IMG/VR virus record: IMGVR_UViG_3300021141_000706
Strand: one strand, 5' to 3'
Source: a virus
DNA: 64,000 nt
The notes beneath the pieces were generated by a model. It was not told the DNA's origin. It did not search any database and worked only from the letters and a program-made list of their open reading frames with translations. The position numbers and the translations under genes were made by a program. This document shows, one piece after another, positions 2-49,556 of the stretch. Positions within the stretch are counted from its first letter, which is position 1. Each line of letters opens with the position of its first letter.

Positions 2-277
2 AAAGTTTATTGTAAAAGAACTTGCTTTGAAAAGAATACAAATGCTTTTCCAGTAAATGGAAAAGAGTATGGTCAAGACTATGTTAAATGGGCTTGGGGT
101 AAGATATATGAATGTCACGAACCAAAAGATTATGAAAAATCGGCTACTTATTTAATAATAGAGTCTGAAGTAAAAGAATCTTGGTATCCAATAAGTGAGA
201 AGAATTTTAACAAACATTTTGAAACTTTAGAAGAAAATCGTAATAAGAAAATAGAAAAAATTTTAAAAAATGATTAA
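2..277 (+). CDS. 5'-truncated small hypothetical protein with C-terminal RxxKIxxIL tag
   Basis: Open frame from the window edge, KVYCKRT...WGKIYE...ENRNKKIEKILKND, TAA at 275-277; not in ORF track. Confidence 0.75.
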   Translation, partial: KVYCKRTCFEKNTNAFPVNGKEYGQDYVKWAWGKIYECHEPKDYEKSATYLIIESEVKESWYPISEKNFNKHFETLEENRNKKIEKILKND

Positions 278-779
278 AGAAATACCAAATTATTTAACCG
301 AACATGAATGTAGCATGTTGATTGGATTAGGAGAGTCTGGTCAATTAGATGCTGGTCGTGTATCTAATCATAAGTTGGCTTATAGAAAAGCCAGAGTTAC
401 TTGGTTAAAAACACAATCACCTTTAGTTGATAAAATTAAAAGTGATGTTGCTGAATTAACAGGATATCCAGTTGAAAATCAAGAAGATTTTCACTTTGTT
501 AAATATAACACTGATGGTGAATACAAAGTACACACTGATGGTAAAGATAGACCAAAAACTGCTTTAGTTTATTTAAATGATGGATTTGTTGGTGGTGAAA
601 CTGAGTTTCCAAAATTAAATACTATCATAAAGCCAGAAATTGGAAAGTTAGTGATATGGGACAATACTTTAGAAGATGGATCAAGTGATCCTAATAGTTT
701 ACATGCTGGATTGCCTGTAATTGTTGGTACTAAATACATTGGTGTTATTTGGATAAGAGGGGAAAAATATAAAAAATGA
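270..779 (+). CDS. 2OG-Fe(II) oxygenase, prolyl 4-hydroxylase-like
   Basis: HTD...H iron triad, YLND..GGETEFP, LHAGLPV..GTKY motifs. Confidence 0.85.
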   Translation: MIKEIPNYLTEHECSMLIGLGESGQLDAGRVSNHKLAYRKARVTWLKTQSPLVDKIKSDVAELTGYPVENQEDFHFVKYNTDGEYKVHTDGKDRPKTALVYLNDGFVGGETEFPKLNTIIKPEIGKLVIWDNTLEDGSSDPNSLHAGLPVIVGTKYIGVIWIRGEKYKK

Positions 780-1519
780 AATATTTATCAGATACAGAAA
801 TCCTTAACTGGAACAGAAGATTAGAAAGAAGTGATTACGCAGTTTATCCACTTTCCAATGTTAGATCAGGTCATCCTGACATCATCTTTAGACAAAAAAT
901 CAATAATGGTTATAGTCCTATGGGTGAACAACTTGTTGAAACAATTGATCCATTTATTCGATATGACTTTACATTCTCAGTAGCTTCTAACAGGAAAGAA
1001 ACATTTCATGACTTATTTGAAAAACTATCAAAAGATCCATTTGGTACTAAATCTATTTATAGAGATCAGAAAAGTGAGAAGATAATGGATATTACTTTTA
1101 ATGATACTGTTATTGAAAGTAAAGAAGTAAATACACACTTAGTTTTTGAAAAAGAGTATATTAGATTTACCATACATTTTGCTGGTAAGTTAGGATCTAT
1201 AATGGCTTATGTTTCTTATTTAGAAGATACTATTAATTTCTTCTCTGAGATTTGGGGTTATAATGAAGATGGTTCAGAAGTTTGTTTATTAAAATATCCA
1301 ATTGGTACAATTGTTTCTTTACCTAAAGATAAGTCTACTGATTATTTAGTTTTAGAATATAAGTATAGAAAATTAGATGATAAGTATTTTATCGATTTTA
1401 TTGCTAGTGAAATGTTAAATAATAAAGGTTCGGTTATAACTTATGGTGAGATTTATACATTTAGAGAATCAGAATTATGTTACAGTCGTAATTCAAGAAT
1501 TGATGATATTTTAAATTAA
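776..1519 (+). CDS. hypothetical protein with C-terminal tag
   Basis: 247 aa ORF with ATGA overlap; ends SRNSRIDDILN. Confidence 0.75.
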   Translation: MKYLSDTEILNWNRRLERSDYAVYPLSNVRSGHPDIIFRQKINNGYSPMGEQLVETIDPFIRYDFTFSVASNRKETFHDLFEKLSKDPFGTKSIYRDQKSEKIMDITFNDTVIESKEVNTHLVFEKEYIRFTIHFAGKLGSIMAYVSYLEDTINFFSEIWGYNEDGSEVCLLKYPIGTIVSLPKDKSTDYLVLEYKYRKLDDKYFIDFIASEMLNNKGSVITYGEIYTFRESELCYSRNSRIDDILN

Positions 1520-1527
1520 TAATTGAA

Positions 1528-2493
1528 ATGAAAGATTTAATAATAGTAACCGCCTATTGTAAAACTGAAGAGCAAGAAAGGTGTTTAGAAAAATGTATTG
1601 ATTCAGTAATTAAATCAGATGCTCACGTTGCTCTTATTTCACACTCACATGCTCCAATACATATTCAGAAAAAGTGTCAATATTATTTTTATGATTATCT
1701 AAATGATATTTCAGATGATTACAAACTACTGGGTTTAAAGTATTTCTCATTTAATAATAATGTTAATAATGTGATTCAATCTATATTTTTTGAAAAATAT
1801 TTTTATGGATTTGCCATTTATAGAATGTTTTCAATTGCTAGTCAAATAGCTATAAATTTTGGTTATCAAAATATTCATCATATTGAATATGACTGTGAGC
1901 TTTTAGATGTAAATCTTATAAACGAACACAGTAATTTACTTGAAGAATGTGATTCAGTAATTTATACAAACACTGGTAAAGAAGATGGTTTTCTTTATGG
2001 ATCATTCAAGTCATTTAAAGTTAGCTCACTTCCAGATAATTTCAAAAATTATAATCGTGAATTTATTAAAAATGAAATTTCAAAAATGAATCCAGCCGCT
2101 TTGGAGTTTTTAACAAAAAGAATTTTTATGAATTCCGGAAAAGTTTTATTTAAAAATACAAATGGATTGTATAATAGATTTAAGGGTGGTGAGCATTTTT
2201 ATAATAGAAATCTACACTATACTTTTTATTATAATCCTGATGACGGATCATTAAATTTATTTTATAAAGGTTTTGATTTTGAAGAAAAAATAACTGTTAT
2301 TGTTAATAAACAAAAAGTTATTAATTTGGATGTTAAACCAAATCATTGGTATGTAAGACCATTAGGTACATTTGATGAAATAGATAATGTTAGAATTGAT
2401 AACTCTGTTAAAATTTTATTTGAAAAGAATTTTGACCAAATCGAAAGAGAAATCTATAAAAATAAATCATTTATTTGTGAACAAAATAATTAA
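1528..2493 (+). CDS. hypothetical protein, possibly glycosyltransferase-like
   Basis: GT-A-like start (LIIVTAY...LEKCIDSV) and HIEYD acidic motif; sits in a glycan-related operon. Confidence 0.5.
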   Translation: MKDLIIVTAYCKTEEQERCLEKCIDSVIKSDAHVALISHSHAPIHIQKKCQYYFYDYLNDISDDYKLLGLKYFSFNNNVNNVIQSIFFEKYFYGFAIYRMFSIASQIAINFGYQNIHHIEYDCELLDVNLINEHSNLLEECDSVIYTNTGKEDGFLYGSFKSFKVSSLPDNFKNYNREFIKNEISKMNPAALEFLTKRIFMNSGKVLFKNTNGLYNRFKGGEHFYNRNLHYTFYYNPDDGSLNLFYKGFDFEEKITVIVNKQKVINLDVKPNHWYVRPLGTFDEIDNVRIDNSVKILFEKNFDQIEREIYKNKSFICEQNN

Positions 2494-4221: not shown

Positions 4222-4508
4222 TAGTTCAAACTAAATTTCTTTGTAAAACAGGTAGCAGAACCGCACCGAGAGGTCCACTTGATGGTATTAAATGGCAAGA
4301 TAGATTCATTGAAGATAAGTGGTATGATGGTGAGTATGAAACTTGGTCTTGGGAAGATGGCTATAGAATAAATAGTGGATGGAGAAGATATTGGGTTATA
4401 AATGAACAAGGTGAGAAAGAAGAAATATCAAAACCAATGTTCAGATTACTTTTTGAAACTGATACACAACAATTAAGAGATAGAAAAATAGAAGACTTAA
4501 TAAAATAA
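4218..4508 (+). CDS. hypothetical protein with C-terminal tag
   Basis: Ends QLRDRKIEDLIK. Confidence 0.75.
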   Translation: MIVQTKFLCKTGSRTAPRGPLDGIKWQDRFIEDKWYDGEYETWSWEDGYRINSGWRRYWVINEQGEKEEISKPMFRLLFETDTQQLRDRKIEDLIK

Positions 4509-4514: not shown

Positions 4515-4916
4515 ATGTACGATAACGAATCAACCAAAGAGAACCAAATTCATGTTTCAAATGAGTTTGTTGATATATTCTCAAACTTCAACGTTGTAAC
4601 ACAAGTTGAAAAAATGAAACAACTTACTAAGCGTGAGTTGTATTTACTTCTAACCGTTTGCTTAGATAAATTCTCTGATGAAGATCCTGTTGTTAAACAC
4701 AACTTACTTCCTTTCAAAGAAGAAATTATGAATATCTTTGATGTTCAAGATGATAAAGATGCTATTGACTCAGTGCTGATTGATTTAATCACTGAATCTG
4801 GTGATAAATACATTGAAACTGATAACATCGTTTATAATGACGACCAAAAGTTACCAGAGCCTTTAACCAAAGACCAAGTTCGTGATGCTAAAATTAATAT
4901 CATCAACGAGAACTAA
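4515..4916 (+). CDS. hypothetical protein with C-terminal tag
   Basis: Ends QVRDAKINIINEN. Confidence 0.75.
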   Translation: MYDNESTKENQIHVSNEFVDIFSNFNVVTQVEKMKQLTKRELYLLLTVCLDKFSDEDPVVKHNLLPFKEEIMNIFDVQDDKDAIDSVLIDLITESGDKYIETDNIVYNDDQKLPEPLTKDQVRDAKINIINEN

Positions 4917-4959: not shown

Positions 4960-6759
4960 ATGGAAGAAACATTAAATACTGAACAAGAAGTGAAACAACC
5001 TGTAATTGGTGAGTTCAAACCTAAGCGCAAGTTCTTAAACTTTGTATCGGCTGTAAACGGAGCAAGAATTCGTTTCATCCGTGATATCGCATTTGTAAAA
5101 GGCGAGAAACTATCTGGCACCTTAGAAGGTGTCGTTTTCAAAATCACAATCTGTGATGAAGGTACAATTAACTTTGAAGAAGTTGATACTACTGTAACTG
5201 ATGCGGCTCAACGTAAACGTCTTATTGATGATATTGATTCAACTGATGTTACAGGTTACGCTCAGAAATTTGTAGTTGCTGGTATTCAGTTTGCTGATGT
5301 TAATGGTGACCTTTGCTATCTTGAAGTAGAACAAATGAAACCAATTGATAAATTGAAATCTATCTTTGACGATGAAGAAACTCCTTCTTTGTCTAATAAA
5401 GGTATGAGTTTTCTTGATGATTTACTAAGTGGTTCTAATGAAGTTGAAACATTAGAATTGTCTGAAAAAGATGCTGAGATTTTTGTTGAAGCTATTGAAA
5501 ATCCACCATCACCAAATGAAAAATTAATCAAAGCTTCTGAGTCTTATTTGGAACAACAATTCCGTAAGATGAATGAAGATAAAATTAATGAGTTAAAAAA
5601 CCGCATTGAGGATGCTGAGAAAGAGTCTGCTCGTTTAAGAAGAGAGATCTCTATGAATGAAACTAAGTTGAAGAAACAAACAGAAGATTTAGGTGTATTA
5701 GAAACTCGTTTAGATAGTTTCAATGCTAATGATGAATCTACGGGTTATGTATTCTTCGTTTCGGAAGAACAAAAGCCAGAAGAAATTGGATTAACAGAAG
5801 ATAACAGAGCAATGGCTGATAAGATTGCGGATATCGTTGGTCTTAAAAAAGATGTTCTTTTCAAAATGTTAACAGAAGGTCACTACAAAATTCGTATTGC
5901 TGAGAAATCAGATATGACTGCTGAGAAAGTAAAAGTTACTAATGATATCTTAGAAAAGATGAAGGCTTTGGTTAATGGTGATAGTTCACTTGAAGCTAAA
6001 GTAACTATGACTGAACCAGGTCAGTTTGAGTATCGTGGTAGTATGACTTGGCATCAAATTGTTGGTAAGATGATTCGTAAAGGATTTGAACAAGAGCCAG
6101 AGTTTGATAAGATTTGTCAATCTAACTCTTACGATTCTAAAGAAGAGGTTAAAGATGAAATGTCTGATATGAAATCAGACATTCAAAAAATGGCTGATGG
6201 TTTAGGTCTTGGTAAAGTTGATTTTGGTAAAGACGGAATTTCAGTAGAAGGTGAGACAAAAACACCTTCAATTGAGATTAAATCAAAAACTGTAAGAACA
6301 TACAAAGAAGAAACTACATTAGTAGTTGTAGGTACAATCGACCACGAGGATAACCGTGATGTTGAAATCACTGACGACTATACCGGATTTGAAGTTTATG
6401 TTGGTAATAAAAAGATGAAGGGTGGTTATGAGTCCGATGGATTTATTTCAATTATGACTTTAACAGAGTTTGCTAAATGGCAAAAACAATACCCAGATGC
6501 TATGACTGATGGTGGTGGTATAGGTTCATTCTTATTACCTAACTTCAAAGGAACTATTGGAGTAACTGCTATGTATGATGTAGGTGAATTCACAAATGAA
6601 TTTGATTTGGATGATTACATTCTACACCAAGATGGAATGGAAGATGCTTATGTGTCCTTGACTCTACCAGAAGGAACTCAAATTATGAAGATGGATGATT
6701 ATCATCAAGTTCCAGTTGCCGCAATGAGAGATATTAAAATCAATAAAATAATTAAGTAA
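4960..6759 (+). CDS. hypothetical coiled-coil protein with C-terminal tag
   Basis: 599 aa, central heptad region; ends AMRDIKINKIIK. Confidence 0.8.
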   Translation: MEETLNTEQEVKQPVIGEFKPKRKFLNFVSAVNGARIRFIRDIAFVKGEKLSGTLEGVVFKITICDEGTINFEEVDTTVTDAAQRKRLIDDIDSTDVTGYAQKFVVAGIQFADVNGDLCYLEVEQMKPIDKLKSIFDDEETPSLSNKGMSFLDDLLSGSNEVETLELSEKDAEIFVEAIENPPSPNEKLIKASESYLEQQFRKMNEDKINELKNRIEDAEKESARLRREISMNETKLKKQTEDLGVLETRLDSFNANDESTGYVFFVSEEQKPEEIGLTEDNRAMADKIADIVGLKKDVLFKMLTEGHYKIRIAEKSDMTAEKVKVTNDILEKMKALVNGDSSLEAKVTMTEPGQFEYRGSMTWHQIVGKMIRKGFEQEPEFDKICQSNSYDSKEEVKDEMSDMKSDIQKMADGLGLGKVDFGKDGISVEGETKTPSIEIKSKTVRTYKEETTLVVVGTIDHEDNRDVEITDDYTGFEVYVGNKKMKGGYESDGFISIMTLTEFAKWQKQYPDAMTDGGGIGSFLLPNFKGTIGVTAMYDVGEFTNEFDLDDYILHQDGMEDAYVSLTLPEGTQIMKMDDYHQVPVAAMRDIKINKIIK

Positions 6760-7282: not shown

Positions 7283-8848
7283 ATGGTATTAAAGAATATA
7301 CACGAAAAACTATTATCAGGTATCCAGACGATGTTGATTGATACTAAGATTAACCTACCTTACTACGGTGAGTTTAACTTACATATTAACTTCATAGAGC
7401 AAGACTCTGTTGGTACTTGTGGTGTCAACGTATCGTCTAAGGGTATGAACTTTTTCTACTCTCCAAAGTTCTTGGAAGATATGTCACAAAAAGAAGTGAA
7501 TTTCATTACTCTTCACGAGGATTTCCACTTATTGTTTAATCACCCAAAACGTACAGTTACTGGTCAATACGACCATAAGATGTCTAACATCGCCCAAGAT
7601 ATGATTATCAATCACGTTATCTGGGAAGATATTCCACACGCTTTCGTTGAAATTCCTAAGAACAAAGATGGTAAGAATATGGCTTTATTCGTTCCGAAAG
7701 AGTACACTGGTAAACTTATCTTTGAAGAGTTGTACGAGTGGTTGAAAGACGAGAAAGAAAAATGGCAGAAAGAGCAAAAGAAAAACTCTGAATGTAAATC
7801 TTGTGGTGGTTCTGGTAAGAAAGACCAAGGTCAAGGTCAACAAGACCAAAAACAAAAAGGTCAAGGTCAACAACCAGGTGATGGTCAAGGCGAAGGCGAG
7901 AAACAAGAAGGTCAAGGCAAAGGTCAACAACCAGGCGAAGGTCAAGGTCAAGGTGAAAGCCAAGACAAACAAGACGGTCAAGGAAAAGGCGAAGGTCAAG
8001 GTCAACAAGGTGGTGGTTCTGGTGAAGGTGAAAGTTGTCCAGACTGTCAAGGTACTGGTAACGAAGGTGGTAAAGACTCAAGTGGTAAACCATCTTACGG
8101 ACCTTACGGAAAGAACCCATCTAAAGATGGTGAGTCTTTAGATACTTGGTCTAAAGAGCAAATCTTCCAAGATATGGAAAATGGTAACGGAGAATACATG
8201 GACAAACACATGGGAGACGATGTTCCAGAAGAAATGCGTGAAGCAATGGTTAAAGACGTTATGGAGCGTTTAGCGGCTCGTGGTTTATCTGCGGGTAATG
8301 TTGAGACTACTCTTAACAAACTTCGTAAGAAACGTAAAGATTATCTTCGTGAAATCAAACGTGCTGTATCAAATATGATTTTCGGTACTGTAAAACAAAA
8401 AACGATTGTTAAACCTAACCGTAGACAAATCGCTGGTTTGAAAGGTAACCGTAAAGTTAAAAACAAAATCAATTGTATCTTAGATACATCTGGTTCAATG
8501 GGTGGTACTTTTGAAAGAGTTCTTTCTTACATCTACCGTAATGATATTGAAATCAACTTGATTGAGGCTGATACTGAAGTTAAGTGGATTGAGAACATCA
8601 AGAACAAACGCAAGTTGGAAACAATGGTGATTAAAGGTCTTGGTGGTACTATCTTACAACCTGCTATCGACTTGGTAGCTGACCAGTTCAATGAGTTCAA
8701 CACTGTTGTCTTAACAGACGGATATTGTGACTCTCTTGACTTGTCAAAAATCAAAGGCAAAGTATTAATGGTTTCAATTGGAGTGAAAGTTCCAATCTCA
8801 AGAAGTAATGGTAAGGTAAAACAAATTATGGTTGAGAAAGAAAGCTAA
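7283..8848 (+). CDS. DUF2201-like metallopeptidase-VWA protein (typical MoxR partner)
   Basis: HEDFH (HExxH), NIAQDMIIN, MIDAS DTSGSM, GLGGT, VLTDG; GQ-rich linker. Confidence 0.85.
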   Translation: MVLKNIHEKLLSGIQTMLIDTKINLPYYGEFNLHINFIEQDSVGTCGVNVSSKGMNFFYSPKFLEDMSQKEVNFITLHEDFHLLFNHPKRTVTGQYDHKMSNIAQDMIINHVIWEDIPHAFVEIPKNKDGKNMALFVPKEYTGKLIFEELYEWLKDEKEKWQKEQKKNSECKSCGGSGKKDQGQGQQDQKQKGQGQQPGDGQGEGEKQEGQGKGQQPGEGQGQGESQDKQDGQGKGEGQGQQGGGSGEGESCPDCQGTGNEGGKDSSGKPSYGPYGKNPSKDGESLDTWSKEQIFQDMENGNGEYMDKHMGDDVPEEMREAMVKDVMERLAARGLSAGNVETTLNKLRKKRKDYLREIKRAVSNMIFGTVKQKTIVKPNRRQIAGLKGNRKVKNKINCILDTSGSMGGTFERVLSYIYRNDIEINLIEADTEVKWIENIKNKRKLETMVIKGLGGTILQPAIDLVADQFNEFNTVVLTDGYCDSLDLSKIKGKVLMVSIGVKVPISRSNGKVKQIMVEKES

Positions 8849-8853
8849 AAAAG

Positions 8854-8874
8854 AGTCCCGAAAGGGACTTTTTT
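8854..8874 (+). terminator. intrinsic terminator
   Basis: AGTCCC-GAAA-GGGACT followed by a T run. Confidence 0.85.
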
Positions 8875-8891
8875 ATTTTAAAAACTTTCCG

Positions 8892-8899: not shown

Positions 8900-8903
8900 T
8901 CAA

Positions 8904-9170
8904 ATGACTGAATGTGATATTTGGATAAAAGTATTTGATAAATTGGGATTTAAGTTTATAGAAGAATATTCCTCTCAAAGTAAGATAAACTTTTTAGTTT
9001 ATCGCAATGATGATGGTGACTATAACTTATACTTTAATAGAGAAACCGATGAAGTTTTATCTTTATTTATCAGAAATAGTAAAACTGAAAATCAAACTAC
9101 TAAACAGTTATTTATAGAAGAAAATAAAAATCTATTCAGGGATGTAAAACTTGAATTAATGAATATATAA
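8904..9170 (+). CDS. hypothetical protein with C-terminal tag
   Basis: Start moved to ATG 8904 (after terminator and promoter); ends LFRDVKLELMNI. Confidence 0.7.
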   Translation: MTECDIWIKVFDKLGFKFIEEYSSQSKINFLVYRNDDGDYNLYFNRETDEVLSLFIRNSKTENQTTKQLFIEENKNLFRDVKLELMNI

Positions 9171-9738: not shown

Positions 9739-10202
9739 TATACAGATTAGATTTCGGCAATCTTTATGAGTGGAATAATTGTAATTCTGCTAACTCTAAG
9801 TTACTTGAAATGGTTCATAACTTAGTGCTAGATTCTTTATTACTATATCGTTACAAGGTTAAGAAATCTATTGTTAATAGGTATGGTGTTAGTGATCCTG
9901 AAAAGATTAACTTTGATTTGATTAAACATAAATCAATTATTGTTTATCATTTAGATATCTACAAAGAAAAGCCTACTTTAATAAATGATTTAATTAAATT
10001 CTGCTTAAAAACAGATAGAGATTTGTTTATACCTACCCAAAGAGAAAGATACTGGGGTAAAGATGATGTTTATAGAAAAAAACACGAGTATAGATTTGAT
10101 ATAGCACTTGAGTTAGACACTTATGATTATCAATACTATGATATGAATAAAGATAGCTCTTTAGTACAATTAAAAAGAGAGCTAATAATTAGCTCTCTTT
10201 AA
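9735..10202 (+). CDS. hypothetical protein with degenerate C-terminal tag
   Basis: GTG start; ends QLKRELIISSL. Confidence 0.7.
   Translation: MIYRLDFGNLYEWNNCNSANSKLLEMVHNLVLDSLLLYRYKVKKSIVNRYGVSDPEKINFDLIKHKSIIVYHLDIYKEKPTLINDLIKFCLKTDRDLFIPTQRERYWGKDDVYRKKHEYRFDIALELDTYDYQYYDMNKDSSLVQLKRELIISSL
10174..10200. terminator. hairpin, probable bidirectional terminator within a gene end
   Basis: AAAGAGAGCTAAT-A-ATTAGCTCTCTTT between converging genes. Confidence 0.65.
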
Positions 10203-24310: not shown

Positions 24311-25450
24311 ATGGCTGAAATGACACAAAAATCCACAATGCCTCAATCAGTGATTGAGAATCTTTCAAAGTTAACCGAGAAAGAGCGTAAATACTTTGCC
24401 GTGATGTGGGCAAAATATGGTGTATTGAATATTACATCTAAACCAGGCGTTGCGAAGTCTGCTATTGGTAAATCAATTGCCGATAAAATGAACTTCCGAT
24501 ATATGGATATTCGTTTGTCAATGGTTGACGAAACTGACGTGGGTTTGTATCCATCTATCAACGAAATTGAAGTTGATGGTAAGATGGTTAAGTGTTTGGA
24601 CTTCGTTGTTCCTCGTTGGGCAGTTGAAGCTAACAAGCAACCAACGATTATCCACTTTGAAGAGTTGAACCGTGCTTCTCAGCAAGTTCGTAATGCCGCT
24701 CTTCAAATCCTACTTGAGCGTCAGATTGGTACTGACTTCAAATTCAACGATAGCGTACTTATGATGTCTTCTGGTAACTTAGGTGACGAAGACGGAACAG
24801 ACGTTGAAGAGTTTGACTCTGCCTTGAACAACCGTTTGGTTCACATCAACCATACATTGTCAGTTGACGAGTGGATTAAAGACTTCGCGATGGATAACTG
24901 TCACAAGTTAATCACCTCTTTCATCAAAGCTCACCCAGAGCAAATGTACAAAGGTGCCACTGAGAACACAAAGGCTTACGCTACTCCACGTTCTTGGACT
25001 ATGATGTCTAAGTTCATCACCGAAAACTTCGGTCAAGATGCTTCACCTCGTGAGTTCTTGCCTTTGTTGAAAGAGGTGGCAAGTGGTTACTTAGGTAACT
25101 CTGCTGTGAAGTTCGTTCAATACTGCGAAGATATGTTGAATATTTCTATCAACGATGTAATCAACAACTACGACGGTATCAAGAAAGACCTTGAGAAGTA
25201 CAACCGTGATAAGAACTCTGAATTGATTCAATCATTGAAAGAGATCGATATCACCAAGTTGAATAAGAAACAACTTGACAACGTTGTAAAGTTCTTGAAC
25301 AACGTGGGTGATGATGAGAAAACCGCTTACTTGCTTTACATCTTAGATAACATCGCCGATGTAACGAACCCAACCTTGAAGACTTTCTTGCTTCAGTTCG
25401 AAGACCTTCTTCGTACTATCAAGAAAATCAACAAGCCTGGTAGTAAGTAA
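24311..25450 (+). CDS. MoxR-like AAA+ ATPase
   Basis: Variant Walker A SKPGVAKS, Walker B IHFEELNRA, DSALNNRL, TPRSW. Confidence 0.85.
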   Translation: MAEMTQKSTMPQSVIENLSKLTEKERKYFAVMWAKYGVLNITSKPGVAKSAIGKSIADKMNFRYMDIRLSMVDETDVGLYPSINEIEVDGKMVKCLDFVVPRWAVEANKQPTIIHFEELNRASQQVRNAALQILLERQIGTDFKFNDSVLMMSSGNLGDEDGTDVEEFDSALNNRLVHINHTLSVDEWIKDFAMDNCHKLITSFIKAHPEQMYKGATENTKAYATPRSWTMMSKFITENFGQDASPREFLPLLKEVASGYLGNSAVKFVQYCEDMLNISINDVINNYDGIKKDLEKYNRDKNSELIQSLKEIDITKLNKKQLDNVVKFLNNVGDDEKTAYLLYILDNIADVTNPTLKTFLLQFEDLLRTIKKINKPGSK

Positions 25451-26447: not shown

Positions 26448-26759
26448 ATGTTTCAAATAAATTCAATGCTATTAAGAAAAATGGGGTGGACTGATCACAG
26501 TTCACCTACATTTAATAGTCCTAGATTTGATGATAATGACTTGGTTAGATTTTATATCAGACCAGAAACAATTTATTTTTTTATAAAAGAACTTTCAGAA
26601 GAAGAAAAACAAATATCAAAAAATTCATATAAATTTGTAATTGGTAAAAGAGAAATTCAATTTGATTCTAATATAGAATTAATTAGATTAATAATTGAAA
26701 ATGAAGCTTGTAACGAAGATTATAAAAGGCACTTTAAATTAAATAAAATATTAAGATGA
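26448..26759 (+). CDS. hypothetical protein with C-terminal tag
   Basis: Start moved to ATG 26448; ends YKRHFKLNKILR. Confidence 0.7.
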   Translation: MFQINSMLLRKMGWTDHSSPTFNSPRFDDNDLVRFYIRPETIYFFIKELSEEEKQISKNSYKFVIGKREIQFDSNIELIRLIIENEACNEDYKRHFKLNKILR

Positions 26760-28197: not shown

Positions 28198-28536
28198 ATG
28201 ATTATACTTACTTGTCAGTTAATCTTTGATAAAGGCGGTGAAAGAATACTTACCTCAGTTGTTTATGATGATATTACTGATAGATTTGTTAGAACGGCTC
28301 AAAAAATATCACCTGAATTAGTACAGGATTTAAATTCTAACAACCCTATGGTTGATATTAATGATGTTGTTAGTTTAGATTATATTGATTATGTATTAGA
28401 TGATGAAGAGTTAGAAGAAGTTATTGAAATGGTTGAAGATGGACCTGACAATGATATAATTAAAAAAGCAAAAGAATTTATTGTCTTCTATAAAAGAGAT
28501 AAAAAAATAAAAAATATAATAGATGAAAAAGATTAA
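28198..28536 (+). CDS. hypothetical protein with C-terminal tag
   Basis: Ends YKRDKKIKNIIDEKD. Confidence 0.75.
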   Translation: MIILTCQLIFDKGGERILTSVVYDDITDRFVRTAQKISPELVQDLNSNNPMVDINDVVSLDYIDYVLDDEELEEVIEMVEDGPDNDIIKKAKEFIVFYKRDKKIKNIIDEKD

Positions 28537-29457: not shown

Positions 29458-29688
29458 ATGAAGTATAAACCCGGAGATGTCGTAATAAAAACCACTGGTG
29501 GAAATAAAATGACTGTCTTTGATAAAGTTAATGATAGTTATAAATGTCTTTGGTTTGTTGAAAGTTCAATGAATGAATCTGAGTTCAAAGAAGAAGAGAT
29601 AGTCTCTCTAAATGAATATAAACGATTTCTAAAGACAGAAGAAAGAGAAGATAAGATTAACCAACTTCTTAATTCTTTTACCAATTAA
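29458..29688 (+). CDS. YodC/DUF2158-like protein with C-terminal tag
   Basis: KPGDVV...GGNKMTV...CLWF then EEREDKINQLLN. Confidence 0.75.
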   Translation: MKYKPGDVVIKTTGGNKMTVFDKVNDSYKCLWFVESSMNESEFKEEEIVSLNEYKRFLKTEEREDKINQLLNSFTN

Positions 29689-33688: not shown

Positions 33689-34543
33689 ATGAAAGGCTTT
33701 AGAAACTACAACAAAACAGAACTCTTCAACACAATCGATAAAATTTCCATTGAAAAGGTTGGAAGTCAGGTTGTCACTAAATTTGACAATCGTGTTATAA
33801 ACACATCAAATGTCTCTAATCGTTATGAGATTTTTGATATTGTTAAGTATCTAAAAGACAAGATTGAACTTATTGAGAAAAACTTTACCATCACTAAATA
33901 TAATTTTAGATTGACAAGAGGTCAACAATCACTTACACTTGTTTCCGATAGTGTTGAGATTGGTGGTGTTGAATTCCATAAATCATTTTACATACTAAAC
34001 TCAACTGATAAATCAAGACGTTTGAGTTTCAATGCTGGTCTGAAATCAGATAACTTCTATACCATCGGTATGAACAATGTTGGAATGAATAAGAAACACC
34101 TTACTGGTGTTACACAAGCCGCAGAAGATGCTTCAGTTGGTTTGAACGGTGAAACATTTGACGAACAAATTGAATCTTTACAATCTTTAGTAGGACATCG
34201 TATACATTTTTCTAAACTTCGTCAGATTATTCTTGGTGATAAAGAAGAAATTCCACAAATCAATCACCGTAAGTTTGATGCGTTTAAGAACACAGTTCGT
34301 TATGCTAGTTCTGACCGTAAAATTAACTTAACATCTGAGCAACATAAGCAATTGTTTCAAAATTCTGAAGCAATGAAAGAAGTTGAGCACGATTTTTACT
34401 TAGATGCTTTCTGGTCTTTTCAAATGTATTTGAGATTGTTTAATAAGCAAGATTCTCACATTATTAAGAATGAGACAGAACGAATTATGAAAATGACTCA
34501 GTGGGCTGTTCGTAATTCAGTTTTGGAAGCTTTAGGAATTTAA
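33689..34543 (+). CDS. hypothetical protein, weakly DUF932-like
   Basis: SNRYE, ILNSTDKSRRLSFNAGL; ends AVRNSVLEALGI (degenerate tag). Confidence 0.6.
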   Translation: MKGFRNYNKTELFNTIDKISIEKVGSQVVTKFDNRVINTSNVSNRYEIFDIVKYLKDKIELIEKNFTITKYNFRLTRGQQSLTLVSDSVEIGGVEFHKSFYILNSTDKSRRLSFNAGLKSDNFYTIGMNNVGMNKKHLTGVTQAAEDASVGLNGETFDEQIESLQSLVGHRIHFSKLRQIILGDKEEIPQINHRKFDAFKNTVRYASSDRKINLTSEQHKQLFQNSEAMKEVEHDFYLDAFWSFQMYLRLFNKQDSHIIKNETERIMKMTQWAVRNSVLEALGI

Positions 34544-37342: not shown

Positions 37343-37622
37343 TGACGATGAATTCTTAGATTACTTCTGTGATGTCTTAGAGGATAACATTTCCGAAAAA
37401 GCAAAATATAAAGTTAGTATTGGTTTTAAGAAACATGACATGTCTATATTCTTTTTTATAGATGGTTCATCTATATTACAGGTTATGCCTGATAAGGATT
37501 TACAATACACATATGCTAATGTTCCTTCTTATGAAGATGAAATACAACATTCGATTAATATTATTGAGAAACAATATAAACGAGATAAAACGATAGAAGA
37601 TATCATAAAAAAAGAGAGTTAA
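37317..37622 (+). CDS. hypothetical protein with C-terminal tag
   Basis: Ends YKRDKTIEDIIKKES. Confidence 0.7.
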   Translation: MDLYKSLINDDEFLDYFCDVLEDNISEKAKYKVSIGFKKHDMSIFFFIDGSSILQVMPDKDLQYTYANVPSYEDEIQHSINIIEKQYKRDKTIEDIIKKES

Positions 37623-41905: not shown

Positions 41906-42751
41906 ATGAATATTGGAATTATAGGACAAGGATTTGTCGGTAGTGCTGTATATGAAGGAATGAAAAATTACTTTGAAACTTACACATTTGATTTAAATGG
42001 AAAATGTACAGAACAATCATTGTTTAGTTTAATAGAAAAATCTGATATGACTTTTCTTTGTTTACCAACACCAATGAGAAAAACAGGAGAATGTGATTTA
42101 TCAATTGTTAGAAATTGTCTCTCTCAAATAGATTTGATTGTTAAATCATTAGATAAAAAAGATTTTATTGTTATTATAAAATCAACAGTTCCACCTGGGA
42201 CAACAGAATTACTAAATAAGGAAAATGAAAACATACATATTGTTTTCAATCCAGAATTCTTAACAGAAGCTAATGCGGTTGAGGATTATAAGAATCAAAA
42301 TAGAATTATTGTTGGTGGTGATAGACCATATACATCTAAAGTAAAAAATGTATTTGAGAAAGCTTTTCCACAAGTTACAATTGTTAAAACAAGTTCTACA
42401 ATTGCTGAGATGATTAAGTATGTAACAAATACTTTCTTAGCAACTAAAGTTTCTTTTGCTAATGAGATGTATCAAATTTGTCAAGGATTGGATATTGATT
42501 ATGATAAAGTAATTGAATATGCTCGTTATGATAACCGATTAGGAAATTCACATTGGTCAGTACCAGGACCAGATGGTGACTTTGGATATGGTGGTCATTG
42601 TTTCCCTAAAGACATTGCGGCTTTACAATATGTAGCTAAAGAAATGAATGTTTCTACTACTGTGTTAAATGCTTCAATTGAAAAGAATAAAGAAGTTAGA
42701 ACTGATAAAGATTGGGAAAAACAAATCGGAAGAGCTGTCTCAGAAGATTAA
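41906..42751 (+). CDS. ugd: UDP-glucose/GDP-mannose dehydrogenase family protein (no C-terminal domain)
   Basis: GQGFVG, KSTVPPGT, NPEFL, GYGGHCFPKD. Confidence 0.85.
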   Translation: MNIGIIGQGFVGSAVYEGMKNYFETYTFDLNGKCTEQSLFSLIEKSDMTFLCLPTPMRKTGECDLSIVRNCLSQIDLIVKSLDKKDFIVIIKSTVPPGTTELLNKENENIHIVFNPEFLTEANAVEDYKNQNRIIVGGDRPYTSKVKNVFEKAFPQVTIVKTSSTIAEMIKYVTNTFLATKVSFANEMYQICQGLDIDYDKVIEYARYDNRLGNSHWSVPGPDGDFGYGGHCFPKDIAALQYVAKEMNVSTTVLNASIEKNKEVRTDKDWEKQIGRAVSED

Positions 42752-42752
42752 T

Positions 42753-42784
42753 TTTGGCTAAAATAAAAATTGTTTGTATATTTG
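42753..42784 (+). promoter_or_regulatory. early promoter
   Basis: TTTG-N20-TATATTTG ending 5 nt before ATG 42789. Confidence 0.75.
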
Positions 42785-42788
42785 TAAC

Positions 42789-43151
42789 ATGAACATTTCC
42801 AACCACGAGAAGAAAAGACGACAACATGAGAAAGAGTTGAAGTCTTTTAGAAATAAAATGGGTAAACATATTGTTTGGTTTGATTCTTTATCAAAGACCA
42901 AGCAATATGATTTGCTATTTGGTTGGAAAAGAGAGAAGAATTCTAACAAGTTACAAGCACCGGAAGAGAAAACAATCCTGAGACCTGCTTATGTTGGTTA
43001 TAGAAGAAAGATGGTAAAACAAAAAATTACTTCTTATCCATCATCACTTAAACACTTTATAGTTAAGTGTAGAGTGAATCCTCAATTTCAACCACATAGA
43101 ACAAGAGTTAGGGATGCGGCTATTGATATACTTTTAAATAGTAAAAAATAA
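42789..43151 (+). CDS. basic hypothetical protein with C-terminal tag
   Basis: Start moved to ATG 42789; ends RVRDAAIDILLNSKK. Confidence 0.7.
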   Translation: MNISNHEKKRRQHEKELKSFRNKMGKHIVWFDSLSKTKQYDLLFGWKREKNSNKLQAPEEKTILRPAYVGYRRKMVKQKITSYPSSLKHFIVKCRVNPQFQPHRTRVRDAAIDILLNSKK

Positions 43152-43166
43152 TAAAAAACAACATAT

Positions 43167-44129: not shown

Positions 44130-44458
44130 TGTTAGACGATACAGATAATTATATAAAAGATAATCTTCAAAATATCATTGATGGTAAGTTTGATGATAAG
44201 TTTTCAAAAGAACAATTAAAGATGATGTTAGAAATGTCATTTTTATATAATCATATTAGTGTTGAAAATGATTCAGTTATATTTGAGTATGATAGTCAGG
44301 AATTAAAAATCTCAGGTATTAATGACCTTGTACATTCAATACCAACCGGTATAGATTATAAAAATCAAATATTTTCAACGATTAAAAGTGATGTAGTTTT
44401 CAAATCGGCTCTTACTCAATTTTTGAGAGATAAAAAAATTAATGAAATATTAGAATGA
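44129..44458 (+). CDS. hypothetical protein with C-terminal tag
   Basis: Ends FLRDKKINEILE. Confidence 0.75.
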   Translation: MLDDTDNYIKDNLQNIIDGKFDDKFSKEQLKMMLEMSFLYNHISVENDSVIFEYDSQELKISGINDLVHSIPTGIDYKNQIFSTIKSDVVFKSALTQFLRDKKINEILE

Positions 44459-45469: not shown

Positions 45470-46110
45470 TGAGTTACTTAAATGAAATAAAAGCTTATAT
45501 GAGAGATATCAATCTTGACATCCTAATGAATTGTCCGGATGTCAAGATTGATATTTCCAAAAGATACTATAATAAGTTTAGACTTTTTTACCCAAGTCGT
45601 AAGCTTATTAAATACACTACCGAAATTGGTGGTGTCTTGGTTGGATCAAGAGCAATTCGTTGCTTTACAATTGATGGTAAGCCAATTCTTGAGAGAAGAG
45701 TAAATGATTGGGATTTTATTGTTACTCTTGATATGGCATTTAAGATTTGTGATGATATGGGAATTGAAGAAATTCCACAAATTGATGGTGTGATAAGTGT
45801 TAAGAATCAAAGAAGATGGGCTCACCCAGACTATCAAAGTGCTTACAGAGTTGGACCAGTTGATGTTCAGTTGATTGTAAAAGAAGAACTGCCTGATTAT
45901 ACAGAGGTTGATGGGGTTAGAATTGCTAACTTTGGTTATTCTGTTTCACAAAAGATTGGATTGACTACTGATTTACAAAGTAAATTGAGTGGTAAAACTC
46001 CAAACCATAGAGTACCTGAAAGTATAGATGAGCAATATCACAAACACATTTCTGATATGAAAGAAATGATTATAAAATTTAATAGTTTAAAATGGAAACA
46101 ACCAGCTTAG
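45469..46110 (+). CDS. putative Pol-beta-superfamily nucleotidyltransferase
   Basis: LVGSRA...DWDF...VDV. Confidence 0.6.
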   Translation: MSYLNEIKAYMRDINLDILMNCPDVKIDISKRYYNKFRLFYPSRKLIKYTTEIGGVLVGSRAIRCFTIDGKPILERRVNDWDFIVTLDMAFKICDDMGIEEIPQIDGVISVKNQRRWAHPDYQSAYRVGPVDVQLIVKEELPDYTEVDGVRIANFGYSVSQKIGLTTDLQSKLSGKTPNHRVPESIDEQYHKHISDMKEMIIKFNSLKWKQPA

Positions 46111-47003: not shown

Positions 47004-47260
47004 AAGTAAAGTGTTTGAATATCAGTAAATACAATCAATATGATAGACTACCTCTAACAGTAGGTAAAGTATATGATGTGATAGAGGTTACACATATTCC
47101 TTTCAATTCCAGGAGGTATGATGATTATACAGGACCTTTCTATAAACTAGTTAATGATAATGGTGAATTATCAGGTTACACAGATGAATGTGTTAGAGTT
47201 CTTACTTTAGATGAAAAGAGAGAATTAAAAATTGAAGATTTACTTAATGGAGTTCTATAA
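47000..47260 (+). CDS. small hypothetical protein with C-terminal tag
   Basis: Start moved to MKVKCL; LTVGKVYDV; ends EKRELKIEDLLNGVL. Confidence 0.75.
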   Translation: MKVKCLNISKYNQYDRLPLTVGKVYDVIEVTHIPFNSRRYDDYTGPFYKLVNDNGELSGYTDECVRVLTLDEKRELKIEDLLNGVL

Positions 47261-47540
47261 CTTATTTAAGATAGTATTTTCAATTGTAATTTACATTATA
47301 CTATCACCAGTCATTATTCCTATTTTATTAATCAATGAAGTAAGATGGAATAAAGGTGTTTGTAGAAAGTGTAACTCTGATAGATATTATTTAGATTTCA
47401 GACCAGATAAGTTTATTAATCATCACTATGTTTGTAAGAAGTGTGGATATAGATTCTTATCATCAAGACATAGAATTCAACCAAGTGATAACCAATTAAA
47501 AACTCTTATAAGAGGTAATAAGATAAATAAAATATTATAA
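47247..47540 (+). CDS. membrane-anchored Zn-ribbon protein with C-terminal tag
   Basis: TM helix, CRKC...CKKC, ends LIRGNKINKIL. Confidence 0.7.
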   Translation: MEFYNLFKIVFSIVIYIILSPVIIPILLINEVRWNKGVCRKCNSDRYYLDFRPDKFINHHYVCKKCGYRFLSSRHRIQPSDNQLKTLIRGNKINKIL

Positions 47541-47541
47541 A

Positions 47542-47829
47542 ATGATTTATCCATCAAGAATAAAAGGTCAGGAATATCCTCTTAGTAAGGGGGATATTGT
47601 TGTTTGTATAACTGAGAGTTTTCAAGAGTTCACTTATGGTAAGCAATATCAACTTTATTGTGATTTCGATTTAAACGTTTCGGTGACACACCGTTATTCA
47701 ACTCTTCCAATTAACTCTGACTTAGGAAATCAACCTTTACCTGCTTATTACTCACCAACTGGTTATTACTTTCTACCTCTTCATATTTGGAGAGAATTGA
47801 AAATAAACAAAGTATTGGAAAATGAATAG
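47542..47829 (+). CDS. small hypothetical protein with C-terminal tag
   Basis: KGDIVVC..FTYGKQY; ends IWRELKINKVLENE. Confidence 0.75.
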   Translation: MIYPSRIKGQEYPLSKGDIVVCITESFQEFTYGKQYQLYCDFDLNVSVTHRYSTLPINSDLGNQPLPAYYSPTGYYFLPLHIWRELKINKVLENE

Positions 47830-48076
47830 AATATTGAAAATTGGAGACAGAGTTAGGAATGTAAGAGTAGGTGTTTATAAAGATGAACCTATTGTTATAG
47901 TTGGTGAATCTGACAATAACAATTCACTTAAAATTAAATTTAACAGATATCATATTAAATATCTAAATGTTTTTACTGTTAGTGGTGATAATATGATGTC
48001 TTGGGTAGATGAAAGTGATATAGTTTTAGATATAGAATATTATAGAAACGAAAAATTAAATAAGATATTAGAATGA
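47822..48076 (+). CDS. small hypothetical protein with C-terminal tag
   Basis: KIGDRVR; ends YYRNEKLNKILE. Confidence 0.75.
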   Translation: MNRILKIGDRVRNVRVGVYKDEPIVIVGESDNNNSLKIKFNRYHIKYLNVFTVSGDNMMSWVDESDIVLDIEYYRNEKLNKILE

Positions 48077-48942
48077 TTGCTATATGTTCATTAGTTAGAA
48101 AACCTTTTAATTTTGATACCTGGGTTAATTATCATATAAGTATAGGCGTTTCTAAATTTCTTTTAAGTGTTGAAGACACACCAGAACTTAAAGAGGTGAT
48201 TGATAGTTATGGTGAATTGATAGAAGCTGAATACATTTCAATGGATTCTAAGGATAAGTTTTATGATAGAAACTATTGGACTCTAATGGATAGACAAAAG
48301 ACTTTTGTTACCAAATCAATAGAAAGATGTAAAGAGTTATCAATTGAATGGTTGATACATGTTGACACTGATGAACTTTTATGGTGTGGTGATTCTGTAT
48401 TAGATTTAGTAAATAATGTAAGTAAAGATGTTGATTATATAACTGTCAAAAATTATGAAGCTGTTTATACATCAGATGATTTAGAAAATCCTTTTCTACA
48501 AACTAATACATTTATCAGCTCAAATATGACCGCATATGATAGTGGTAAAAGTATAGGTAGAATTTCACCAAATTTAGAATTCAGAGGAGCTCATGCTTTC
48601 ACTGGACAACACCAAAATATAGAAACTAAAAAGGCAGTTGTTTTACATTTTGAATCTGCTACATTTGAAAAATGGTTTGAGAAATTCAACAATATAACTA
48701 ATTCATATAATTTTTCAGATACTCAAGGGATGGGAGAGTATATGATAGATGATATGAAAAATGAAATAAAAGAAGTTCCTATAACTTTTTATCGAGATTC
48801 ATCAAGACTTGTACGATCAGGTGACATAAAAAAGTGTAGAGAGTATTATAACAAAATGAAAGTTTCTAGATATAACCCTCATACTTGGAAGTTATACTGG
48901 ACACCATTACTACCAGAAAAAAATAGCCACTGGTTAAGATAA
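48073..48942 (+). CDS. glycosyltransferase (GT2/GT92-like)
   Basis: WVNYH..IG, WLIHVDTDE, GKSI, VLHF. Confidence 0.8.
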   Translation: MIAICSLVRKPFNFDTWVNYHISIGVSKFLLSVEDTPELKEVIDSYGELIEAEYISMDSKDKFYDRNYWTLMDRQKTFVTKSIERCKELSIEWLIHVDTDELLWCGDSVLDLVNNVSKDVDYITVKNYEAVYTSDDLENPFLQTNTFISSNMTAYDSGKSIGRISPNLEFRGAHAFTGQHQNIETKKAVVLHFESATFEKWFEKFNNITNSYNFSDTQGMGEYMIDDMKNEIKEVPITFYRDSSRLVRSGDIKKCREYYNKMKVSRYNPHTWKLYWTPLLPEKNSHWLR

Positions 48943-48952
48943 ATAATAAATT

Positions 48953-49297
48953 ATGACAAAAATATATTTAGCAATTCCGTATTCAAGATACGAAGAAAAA
49001 AGTTTTAAGTTAGCCAATGAAATTGCGGCTCAATTAATTAATATGGGCCACGTTGTGTTCTCACCAATCAGTATGTCACATCCAATTGCGGTTCACGGTA
49101 ATCTAAAAGGTGACTGGGAAACTTGGAAAAGAATTGATTTTGAATTCATTAAATGGTGCGATGAGGTAGTAGTTGTAAACTTTGATGAAGAAGCTGTTGC
49201 TAACTCAACAGGTGTTCAAGGTGAATTAGAATTTGCTACAGAACTTGGTAAAAATATCAGATATTACTATGACAAGTCACGAGTGGAGAATAACTGA
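48953..49297 (+). CDS. DUF1937 / nucleoside 2-deoxyribosyltransferase-like protein
   Basis: IYLAIPYS, VFSPISMSH, STGVQGELEFA. Confidence 0.75.
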   Translation: MTKIYLAIPYSRYEEKSFKLANEIAAQLINMGHVVFSPISMSHPIAVHGNLKGDWETWKRIDFEFIKWCDEVVVVNFDEEAVANSTGVQGELEFATELGKNIRYYYDKSRVENN

Positions 49298-49556
49298 TAT
49301 GATTGAAAAGGGATTAGTCAGCTATGTCAAAGGTGAAAAGGTTGTACTATTCCGTAGAAAATCAAATGGTTATCCAAAAGGAATTAAAGACGGTGTTGAA
49401 TATACTATAAGAGGAATCTATGGTGAAGGTATTGAAGTTGCCTTAAATTCTTCTAATGGTATTGGTTTGTTACAATCAATAAAAGTACACAGAAGTTATA
49501 TGATTCCAAAATATGCTCTACGAGATATCAATCTTAAAAAACTTCTTAATAGTTAA
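49269..49556 (+). CDS. small hypothetical protein with C-terminal tag
   Basis: Start moved to ATG 49269; ends ALRDINLKKLLNS. Confidence 0.7.
   Translation: MTSHEWRITDMIEKGLVSYVKGEKVVLFRRKSNGYPKGIKDGVEYTIRGIYGEGIEVALNSSNGIGLLQSIKVHRSYMIPKYALRDINLKKLLNS

Follow-up and report, generated by a model that had tools for sequence, protein, structure and literature searches.

A shared C-terminal tag on unrelated, mostly early-like proteins of huge freshwater phages and its putative common reader

In the window, a stretch of 64,000 nucleotides from the IMG/VR virus record IMGVR_UViG_3300021141_000706, nineteen proteins with unrelated bodies had been predicted to end in variants of one short peptide. 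The question is whether these tails arose by chance, serve the nucleic acid or address their carriers to a common partner. The phage itself is a giant lake phage. All nineteen tails are found where the original prediction had placed them, 0-5 residues from the end of open reading frames of 76-599 amino acids (Table 1). Fifteen of the nineteen fit R-x-x-x-[IL]-x-x-[ILVM]-[ILM] and nine fit the strict pattern R-[DEN]-x-K-[IL]-x-x-[ILV]-[ILM]. The window holds nine strict matches, each at most five residues from the stop and none internal (0/9). Four tails are looser (RDAKINII, stop at 4916; RDVKLELM, 9170; RNSVLEAL-GI, 34543; RELIISSL, 10202), and the first three named by form, RDAKINII, RDVKLELM and RNSVLEAL-GI, keep that form in orthologues.

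Table 1. Tag copies, promoter boxes and candidate readers in the window
Feature	Position	Strand	Context
RNKKIEKIL	239..265	+	ORF 2-277, 3 residues before stop; kept in orthologues
RNSRIDDIL	1487..1513	+	ORF 776-1519 (247 aa); 8/9 residues identical in LR745206.1
RDRKIEDLI	4476..4502	+	ORF 4218-4508 (96 aa); family alignment A2; predicted at end of C-terminal helix (low-confidence model)
RDAKINIIN, variant tag	4881..4907	+	ORF 4515-4916 (133 aa); same form in L001, L002, LR745206.1
RDIKINKII	6727..6753	+	ORF 4960-6759 (599 aa), largest tagged protein; orthologues compared
RDVKLELMN, loose tag, weaker match	9138..9164	+	ORF 8832-9170
RELIISSL, weakest candidate	10176..10199	+	ORF 9735-10202, last gene of unit; RELVISSL and RELVLNSL in orthologues
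RHFKLNKIL	26727..26753	+	ORF 26400-26759; pattern match and orthologue comparison
RDKKIKNII	28495..28521	+	ORF 28198-28536; pattern match
REDKINQLL, behind DUF2158 domain	29644..29670	+	ORF 29458-29688 (76 aa), last gene of unit
RNSVLEALG(I), Gly variant	34511..34537	+	ORF 33689-34543 (284 aa); variant dominant in G005
RDKTIEDII	37581..37607	+	ORF 37317-37622, last gene of unit; pattern match
RDAAIDILL	43110..43136	+	ORF 42774-43151; pattern match and orthologue comparison
RDKKINEIL	44426..44452	+	ORF 44129-44458; pattern match
RDINLDILM, tag-like, near N-terminus	45502..45528	+	residues 12-20 of ORF 45469-46110; conserved in LR745206.1 orthologue
RELKIEDLL	47219..47245	+	ORF 46973-47260; pattern match
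RGNKINKIL	47511..47537	+	ORF 47232-47540, directly before stop; pattern match
RELKINKVL	47791..47817	+	ORF 47542-47829; pattern match
RNEKLNKIL	48044..48070	+	ORF 47822-48076; pattern match
RDINLKKLL	49521..49547	+	ORF 49233-49556; pattern match and orthologue comparison
TAnnTTTG box (host-type, early-like)	42749..42756	+	heads unit 42774-49556 with eight C-terminally tagged genes
Further TAnnTTTG boxes	3933, 4934, 7253, 24271, 33664, 35097		each upstream of tagged genes
Metallopeptidase and vWA protein (DUF2201_N/DUF2201), candidate reader	7283..8848	+	Pfam
MoxR-like AAA+ ATPase, candidate reader	24311..25450	+	weak AAA_3/AAA_5 matches on orthologue

When the 17 C-terminal residues of all proteins were permuted, 0.02 strict matches were expected in the window as opposed to the nine observed. 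In LR745206.1, a 635-kb relative syntenic with the window, 76 strict C-terminal matches stand against 0.20 expected. Random internal windows, used as a further control, gave 0.0 and 0.63 strict matches, respectively. Therefore the tag is real and chance is excluded as its source; the enrichment over shuffled termini, which the original prediction had named as a check, is found in both sequences. The shuffle control indicates that the order of the residues matters and not their composition alone. A looser pattern is present on 14-18% of the open reading frames. That all carriers lie on the plus strand is correct for the window but not for LR745206.1 (83 plus, 60 minus).

The tag opens with a hydrophobic residue ahead of an invariant Arg; next come Asp/Glu/Asn, one free position, Lys and Ile/Leu, then a variable pair, a second Ile/Leu and, at its end, Leu/Ile/Phe or Gly-Ile. 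The invariance of the Arg is partly set by the method, as the search patterns themselves fix it. Asp/Glu/Asn directly follows the Arg in 77-90% of the copies, Phe occupies the last tag position in 12-15%, and the tag helix often contains acidic or amide residues. The core is followed by 0-8 polar residues, and the distance from tag to stop is 0 to 8 residues overall.

Selection on the tag acts on the protein, given the background-like use of Arg codons and the retention of 96% of key tag positions between orthologue pairs of about 50% overall identity. The underlying DNA differs, as had been claimed: the Arg is encoded by AGA (71%), AGG (16%), CGT (7%) or CGA (5%), which matches genome-wide usage, and the Ile/Leu positions use 6-8 codons. 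A signal at the RNA or DNA level (translational coupling, promoter or mobile cassette) was rejected because the tag uses codons as the rest of the genome does. Dependence on the downstream gene was rejected as well, because 26% of the tagged genes of 60-150 residues are the last of their unit compared with 29% of the untagged ones.

The latter figures also weigh against the view that the tag has no reader, being instead an intrinsic cap or stabiliser of the helix, an amphipathic helix that binds membranes, or a side effect of A-rich sequence before the next start. This view could draw on the many tagged genes which overlap or abut the next start, and on the Asn/Asp-Gly, or Gly and a hydrophobic end, often found after the tag as in a helix C-cap. 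We nevertheless regard it as very unlikely: residue order matters beyond composition, similar AT-rich relatives lack the tag, the carrier bodies are unrelated folds, and neither a cap nor lipid binding needs an invariant Arg with a conserved acidic or amide neighbour. These conserved positions lead us away from plain membrane binding, one of the partner types considered in the original prediction. A membrane-targeting helix of the MinD/FtsA type is basic and hydrophobic and does not depend on particular polar residues. It was rejected, as the ClpC-linked family (A3) is invariant at the tag Arg and at no other column, and as this Arg is so regularly followed by Asp/Glu/Asn.

The carriers are mostly early-like ORFans of 60-150 residues; among their bodies are a DUF2158 domain, an Hcp-like beta domain and SF2 helicases, and many others show neither mutual nor Pfam similarity. 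Since these bodies are unrelated folds and not homologous, the carriers were judged not to be one expanded set of paralogues that share a helix cap. The DUF2158 assignment of ORF 29458-29688 holds, and its tag is kept in 120 of 120 homologues among the matches listed. The absence of the tag from recognisable enzymes was borne out for all scanned proteins with a recognisable enzyme domain; the enzymes interleaved with tagged genes in the same operons are untagged.

The tag is modular and tolerates other positions. Two helicases have an internal tag segment which tag-bearing relatives retain. The UvsW-like helicase has it inside an insertion that is missing from the orthologue of the tag-free genome G003, and the helicase tag insertion was seen only in tag-bearing genomes. 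Together with the N-terminal copy in Table 1 this means that a free C-terminus is not required, and free-end degrons (ssrA-type tags and ligands of PDZ or tail-specific proteases), which depend on a free carboxylate at the very C-terminus, were rejected on account of the variable end distance and the conserved internal and N-terminal copies. In an AlphaFold2 model of one tagged family the body reaches a pLDDT above 90 and the tag helix about 57. The view of the tag as a short amphipathic helix that stands by itself belongs to the docking explanation given below and shares its joint grade of slightly better than even.

Judged by the promoter classes, which were inferred from motifs (TAnnTTTG as host-type box, ATATATA as phage late box), the tag is tied to the early class. 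All 17 assignable tagged genes of the window lie behind a TAnnTTTG box and none in a unit headed by ATATATA. In LR745206.1 64 tagged genes are early and 27 late, compared with 199 early and 393 late untagged genes; a quarter of the classified tagged genes there belong to the late-like class.

These classes bear on the idea that the tag is a packaging signal which loads proteins into the capsid for injection. The T4 capsid-targeting sequence is N-terminal, occurs on late packaged proteins and is removed by the prohead protease, while the encapsulin cargo-loading peptide is C-terminal, rich in Gly, Ser and Leu, and attaches to the inside of an HK97-fold shell, the type of shell that takes up the cargo in both cases. 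Like these peptides, the tag is modular and terminal and is found on unrelated, here small, proteins, and a T4-type major capsid protein is encoded by the phage. However, the tag shares with the encapsulin peptide its position and not its consensus, and most tagged genes follow the host-type box rather than the late box which precedes the capsid gene. A separate N-terminal motif, MK[YH]LKx[FY]N/E, is found on 63 LR745206.1 proteins (54 late, 9 unclassified, 0 early), only two of which also have the C-terminal tag; it fits packaging better and is the better candidate for such a signal. Packaging by the tag is therefore highly improbable, and a T4-type capsid-targeting sequence was rejected, given the C-terminal position of the tag and its enrichment in early-like units. 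The observations also make a late role in a scaffold or the capsid less likely.

The tag-bearing clade consists of huge freshwater phages related to 'Mahaphages', in which about one protein in six is tagged. LR745206.1, G005, G007 and G009 have 13-91 strict C-terminal matches each, and none was found in G001-G004, G010 and G012-G014 (for G004 in the 200 of 349 kb scanned). Similar AT-rich huge phages do without the tag; the G+C content of tag-free G001-G003 is 30-35%. The consensus is R-E-x-[KR]-L-x-E-[LI]-G-I in G005 and W-R-[ED]-x-Q-I-D-x-I-L in G008, the tag of G006 is more basic, and G011 has a weak variant and lacks the clade-specific ClpC form. The tag is clade-specific with a consensus drifting in concert within each lineage, which would fit one co-evolving reader.

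This drift is relevant for the alternative that a host protein (protease, chaperone, polymerase or clamp) reads the tag as a hijacking motif of host-takeover proteins. Small early ORFans, the majority of the carriers, usually act on the host, and two helicases are tagged. The PIP-box, Q-x-x-[ILM]-x-x-[FY]-[FY] or a related peptide, binds the sliding clamp. With it and with LxxLL helical motifs the tag shares the spacing of one polar (here acidic or amide) and three hydrophobic positions and the occurrence at either end or internally; it differs from the PIP-box in mostly lacking Gln and aromatic residues, in its Arg four residues before the first hydrophobic one and in its far larger number of carriers. 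About 150 clients are many for a clamp, and no gp45-type clamp was detected with Pfam PF09116. The consensus also differs between close phage lineages, which suits a fast-evolving reader better than a conserved host hub. We consider a host reader rather unlikely.

The candidates from the phages themselves are a MoxR-like ATPase with a vWA-metallopeptidase, Hsp70, and a ClpC without N-domain; among the genomes compared, the first two and the ClpC with its tagged partner occur only in the tag-bearing clade. Full-length orthologues of the vWA-metallopeptidase exist in tag-bearing G005, G007, G009 and LR745206.1 and in none of four tag-free genomes which are complete or nearly so (96-100%). The MoxR-like ATPase, whose tblastn matches are annotated as such, is present in G005 and G007 and absent from G001-G004. 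For this pair of jumbo phages roles in virion assembly and structural-protein processing were proposed, and a shared tail is not mentioned (Iyer et al. 2021, PMC7824862). In the window the pair and the tagged genes lie in early-like units, which differs from the proposed assembly role. The co-occurrence of the three machines with the tag may be explained by shared ancestry: as the tag-bearing genomes form one clade and about 109 LR745206.1 genes show the same presence pattern, it singles out no reader. LR756501.1 has Hsp70 and a DUF2201 homologue, with no such tag in the 41-kb region around the latter's gene.

A narrower alternative makes the tag a degron or tether for the phage ClpC-ClpP, either for the scheduled clearance of early proteins or for tagged adaptors delivering the targets they hold. 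The SspB tail binds ClpX and the Pup helix binds Mpa. LR745206.1 encodes two ClpP and a ClpC-type ATPase with a VGF ClpP-docking loop, a UVR middle domain and no Clp_N domain. In the tag-bearing clade ClpC begins with a conserved short peptide and an acidic run, and a small protein is tightly coupled upstream, the most conserved part of which is the tag; its body is weakly similar to Hcp and tail-tube proteins, a fold that forms six-membered rings. Against this, tag-free relatives also encode ClpC and ClpP, including N-domain-less forms in G003, G012 and G013, the tagged gene adjoining ClpP in LR745206.1 is not conserved elsewhere, and internal and N-terminal tags are tolerated, unlike in free-end degrons. 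A Clp-specific tag is thus unlikely. Tails read by an AAA+ protease are known from ssrA and other ClpX degron classes (PMC12723719), and an adaptor-like protein of phage SPO1 acts on ClpCP (PMC6873191). The likeness lies in short peptides on unrelated proteins, one unfoldase as reader and matching machinery in the phage; however, the sequences are not alike, the tag is a helix, needs no free end and covers about 15% of the proteome, and the Clp link is hypothetical.

We therefore favour, with confidence slightly above even, the explanation that the tag is a docking or recognition handle for a common reader, possibly one of the clade's phage proteostasis machines. This keeps part of the originally predicted docking helix, namely a modular tag which is selected as protein, linked to the early class and drifting in concert; the partner we infer. 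The reader might, at a guess, be the MoxR-like ATPase with the vWA-metallopeptidase, Hsp70, or the N-domain-less ClpC with ClpP. A single reader would contact Arg0 and Lys3 as well as the hydrophobic face formed by positions 4, 7 and 8, and the tagged proteins would be handled as a single cohort in early infection, with remodelling or the timed removal of tagged proteins, or of targets held by them, as the outcome.

A bolder version, which we rate as distinctly unlikely, is a virus-encoded programmable protein-handling system: more than 100 fast-evolving early 'receptors' would each capture a host or rival target of their own and dock, all by way of the tag helix, on one phage AAA+ machine (MoxR/vWA-peptidase or N-domain-less ClpC-ClpP) that remodels or destroys it. 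PRANC is a folded C-terminal F-box-like domain of about 40 residues in poxvirus ankyrin proteins, which binds host Skp1. Here, too, a large and variable set of viral proteins would reach one machine through a docking module common to their C-termini, although the tag is a helix of 9-13 residues with a putative reader and not a folded domain. If true, such a system would give bacterial viruses an equivalent of the F-box or PRANC receptor families.

The literature searched holds no description of the shared tail and its putative common reader, or of a two-label organisation of the proteome for any phage. Our data suggest such an organisation, with the C-terminal tag and the N-terminal late motif as address labels tied to two promoter classes. 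If about 150 proteins indeed converge on one reader, the complete early effector repertoire of the largest known phages, otherwise mostly unannotatable, could be recognised by the tag in the sequence alone, and tag and reader would provide a portable pair for Bacteroidota.

All 19 of the tails R-[DEN]-x-K-[IL]-x-x-[IL]-[LI] that the original prediction had reported for the window were found in place. With the strict pattern R-[DEN]-x-K-[IL]-x-x-[ILV]-[ILM] the 89 ORFs of the window yield nine matches, each at most five residues from the stop, and the looser pattern R-x-x-x-[IL]-x-x-[ILVM]-[ILM] adds six C-terminal matches and six at other positions. Shuffling the last 17 residues of each protein gives 0.02 strict matches on average, random internal windows give none. 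Genome-wide counts were taken from relatives of the window, of which the 634,780-bp uncultured phage LR745206.1 (syntenic with the window at positions 505,958-562,893) was read whole. It comprises 76 C-terminal and 14 internal strict matches vs 0.20 for shuffled tails, and 143 of its 995 ORFs match the loose pattern, 175 if a Gly variant is counted. The C-terminal enrichment over shuffled tails, proposed originally as a check, is therefore present in the window as well as in LR745206.1.

Counted from the Arg (position 0), the logo of LR745206.1 extends the motif upstream: position -4 is preferably Lys, Ile or Leu, -3 Ser or Gln, and -1 hydrophobic. It then reads Arg, Asp/Glu/Asn, x, Lys, Ile/Leu, Asn/Asp/Lys, x, Ile/Leu/Val, Leu/Ile/Phe and closes with up to eight polar residues. 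Small proteins are the main carriers: of the 60-150-residue ORFs of this phage a quarter are tagged, vs 0-4% of those above 250 residues. Two loose matches were discarded. The match of the DNA polymerase in LR745206.1 and in the tag-bearing genome G009 is regarded as due to chance, since its tail can be aligned with the ordinary tail of the polymerase in the tag-free genome G003, and the matching C-terminus of ClpP is the normal conserved end of that protein. A literature search for this tag found no description in the papers covered.

Further relatives of the window are LR756502.1, LR756504.1 and many IMG/VR contigs. We take LR745206.1 and its relatives to be 'Mahaphages' (Al-Shayeb et al. 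2020), which infect Bacteroidota; the T9SS sorting-domain protein, the TonB-dependent receptor and the OmpH-like gene of the window fit such a host. The window has a G+C content of about 30% and three tRNA genes, near which it encodes RNA-repair components of the 'Swiss Army Knife' kind; it also encodes a protein with collagen repeats and a P-loop kinase resembling zeta toxin.

That the tag is conserved at the protein level, as had been claimed, is borne out by codon usage and by orthologues. The Arg codons at the tag track genome-wide usage, each hydrophobic position is encoded by six to eight different codons, and in ten tagged orthologue pairs of window and LR745206.1 the five key positions are 96% kept, the aligned regions being on average 49.5% identical. 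In the DUF2158 protein the tag is kept in 120 of the 120 homologues listed. A coupling signal failed the direct test, since 26% of the tagged small genes vs 29% of the untagged ones are last in their transcription unit; after three tagged genes of the window an opposite-strand gene comes next.

The carrier bodies proved as unrelated as predicted, including the DUF2158 domain, a beta-rich Hcp/tail-tube-like domain and many ORFans, so that a single expanded gene family fails to explain the tag. A free-end degron fails as well, because conserved internal and near-N-terminal copies exist. In four tag-bearing lineages the tag is found inside an XPD/DinG-like helicase, in a UvsW-like helicase it sits within an insertion missing from the orthologue in tag-free G003, and one ORF of the window holds a conserved copy at residues 12-20. 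One internally tagged protein has an orthologue that ends directly behind the tag, suggesting that two genes were fused. A plain membrane helix did not withstand direct testing either. In the best AlphaFold2 model of a tagged family (pLDDT 84) the body exceeds 90 and the tag helix reaches only about 57, and therefore the helix is not confidently packed on the body. The fold of a tagged 99-residue protein (pLDDT 55) is too uncertain to use and suggests only a C-terminal helix.

Intergenic DNA is dominated by the motifs [AT]ATATATA and TAnnTTTG, two promoter-like classes that divide the genes. The former precedes the T4-type capsid gene of LR745206.1; the latter presumably corresponds to the -7 box of Bacteroidota primary-sigma promoters. 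Naming units headed by TAnnTTTG early and those headed by ATATATA late, by motif, we found all 17 assignable tagged genes of the window behind a TAnnTTTG box, none in an ATATATA-headed unit and none on the minus strand. The tagged genes of LR745206.1 divide into 64 early, 27 late and 47 unassigned, the untagged into 199, 393 and 213. A late packaging role for the tag fails this test, the tagged genes being mainly early-class. Recognisable enzymes of the same operons (PRPP synthetase, FolD, DHFR, glycosyltransferases, Dam methylase, nucleases, RNA-repair domains) are devoid of the tag, in agreement with the claim that metabolic enzymes lack it.

Another end motif, the N-terminal MK[YH]LKx[FY]N/E, occurs on 63 proteins of LR745206.1 (54 late, 9 unclassified, 0 early), only two of which also have the C-terminal tag, and on unrelated proteins of the window. 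It may serve as a signal for capsid targeting or for late translation. Two adjoining paralogues of the window have a common tail S-[IV]-N-[QK]-L-Y-[RK]-[ND], which is kept in their LR745206.1 orthologues.

Positions of tag-related and accompanying features
Feature	Sequence	Position (strand)	Remark
CYTH-like protein, ~200-residue protein, tagged Hcp/tail-tube-like ~125-residue protein, N-domain-less ClpC	L020	4529-8109	conserved operon; same order in compared loci L017-L055
XPD/DinG-like helicase	LR745206.1 (L008)	235077-236744	internal tag
UvsW-like helicase	LR745206.1 (L006)	120830-122440	internal tag
ORF with near-N-terminal tag	window	45469-46110	
tRNA-Leu, tRNA-Arg, tRNA-Met	window	23441-24041	
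HAD_SAK_2; CCA-adding/poly(A) polymerase head; 2H phosphoesterase	window	9175-9738; 16023-17192; 17189-17653	RNA repair
TonB-dependent receptor; T9SS C-terminal sorting-domain protein; OmpH-like chaperone	window	18041-20854 (-); 20861-22444 (-); 37661-38149 (-)	host-like outer-membrane genes
Collagen-repeat protein; zeta-toxin-like P-loop kinase	window	11795-13225; 32317-33609 (-)	
MK[YH]LKx[FY]N/E proteins	window	13244-14008, 14837-15604, 61029-62408 (+)	
MK[YH]LKx[FY]N/E proteins	window	10203-11618, 58588-58833, 60339-60971 (-)	
Paralogues with common tail	window	13956-14837; 14837-15604	
ATATATA-type sites	window	13232, 16010, 56119, 62432	intergenic, examples
TAnnTTTG-type sites	window	3933, 4934, 24271, 42749	intergenic, examples
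DPYGEENW or SYGEEEW tails	LR756501.1 (L176)	1585-1752, 2711-3073, 36124-37710	

Among huge-phage genomes picked for a common ClpC homologue (G001-G004, G010, G012-G014; of the 349-kb G004, 200 kb were read) there are no strict C-terminal matches and about 1% loose ones, vs 13-91 strict and 9-18% loose in LR745206.1, G005, G007 and G009; G006 and G008 are intermediate. Since the tag-free G001-G003 are AT-rich too (G+C 30-35%), the tag is not a composition effect.

The original observation is thus confirmed and extended; its interpretation as a docking helix for a common partner is kept as the best reading, and the search for that partner, the reader, did not identify it. Candidates in LR745206.1 are a ClpC-type ATPase without Clp_N domain but with a UVR middle domain and a VGF loop (two ClpP genes are present), an Hsp70, and a MoxR-like ATPase and a metallopeptidase-vWA protein, both also encoded in the window. 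The latter pair is already known from jumbo phages (PMC7824862). Within the tag-bearing clade the N-terminus of ClpC is a conserved short peptide followed by an acidic run, and ClpC is preceded by a coupled small protein whose sole invariant column is the tag Arg. However, ClpC and ClpP are also encoded by tag-free genomes, which counts against them as tag-specific readers. Of the tag-bearing genomes, the better-covered ones have Hsp70, vWA-peptidase and MoxR-like ATPase, and all four tag-free genomes that are near-complete or complete (96-100%) lack them; in tag-bearing G009 (84% complete) no MoxR-like gene was found.

By phyletic profiling, 109 genes of LR745206.1 recur in tag-bearing G005 but in none of three tag-free genomes, a list which fragmentary contigs did not usefully narrow. 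About 100 other genes show the presence pattern of the candidates, as the tag-bearing genomes all belong to one clade. A complex prediction for the ClpC-like ATPase and the unlinked tagged 99-residue protein of the same contig scored 0.00, which counts neither way on binding. The profile of the ClpC-linked family matched no solved structure, the tagged neighbours of the LR745206.1 ClpP genes are not conserved in other tag-bearing genomes, and scanning with a single sequence for distant vWA-peptidase loci returned close relatives only. These proteins stay candidate readers, none being singled out by co-occurrence within one clade.

In LR756501.1, a 735-kb relative, the tag was not found in 41 kb around a diverged vWA-peptidase gene, although Hsp70 and vWA-peptidase are encoded. 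Three of its proteins share a different tail, DPYGEENW or SYGEEEW, which may represent a switch of tag between lineages. Where the tag is present, its consensus shifts as a set from lineage to lineage: G005 prefers Glu at +1 and +6 and ends the tag in Gly-Ile, Trp at -1 and Gln at +3 are seen in G008, Asn at +3 in G011, and the tag of G006 is more basic. Gene conversion is unlikely to have caused this concerted shift because the tag codons are not homogenised, and its simplest account would be co-evolution with one shared reader.
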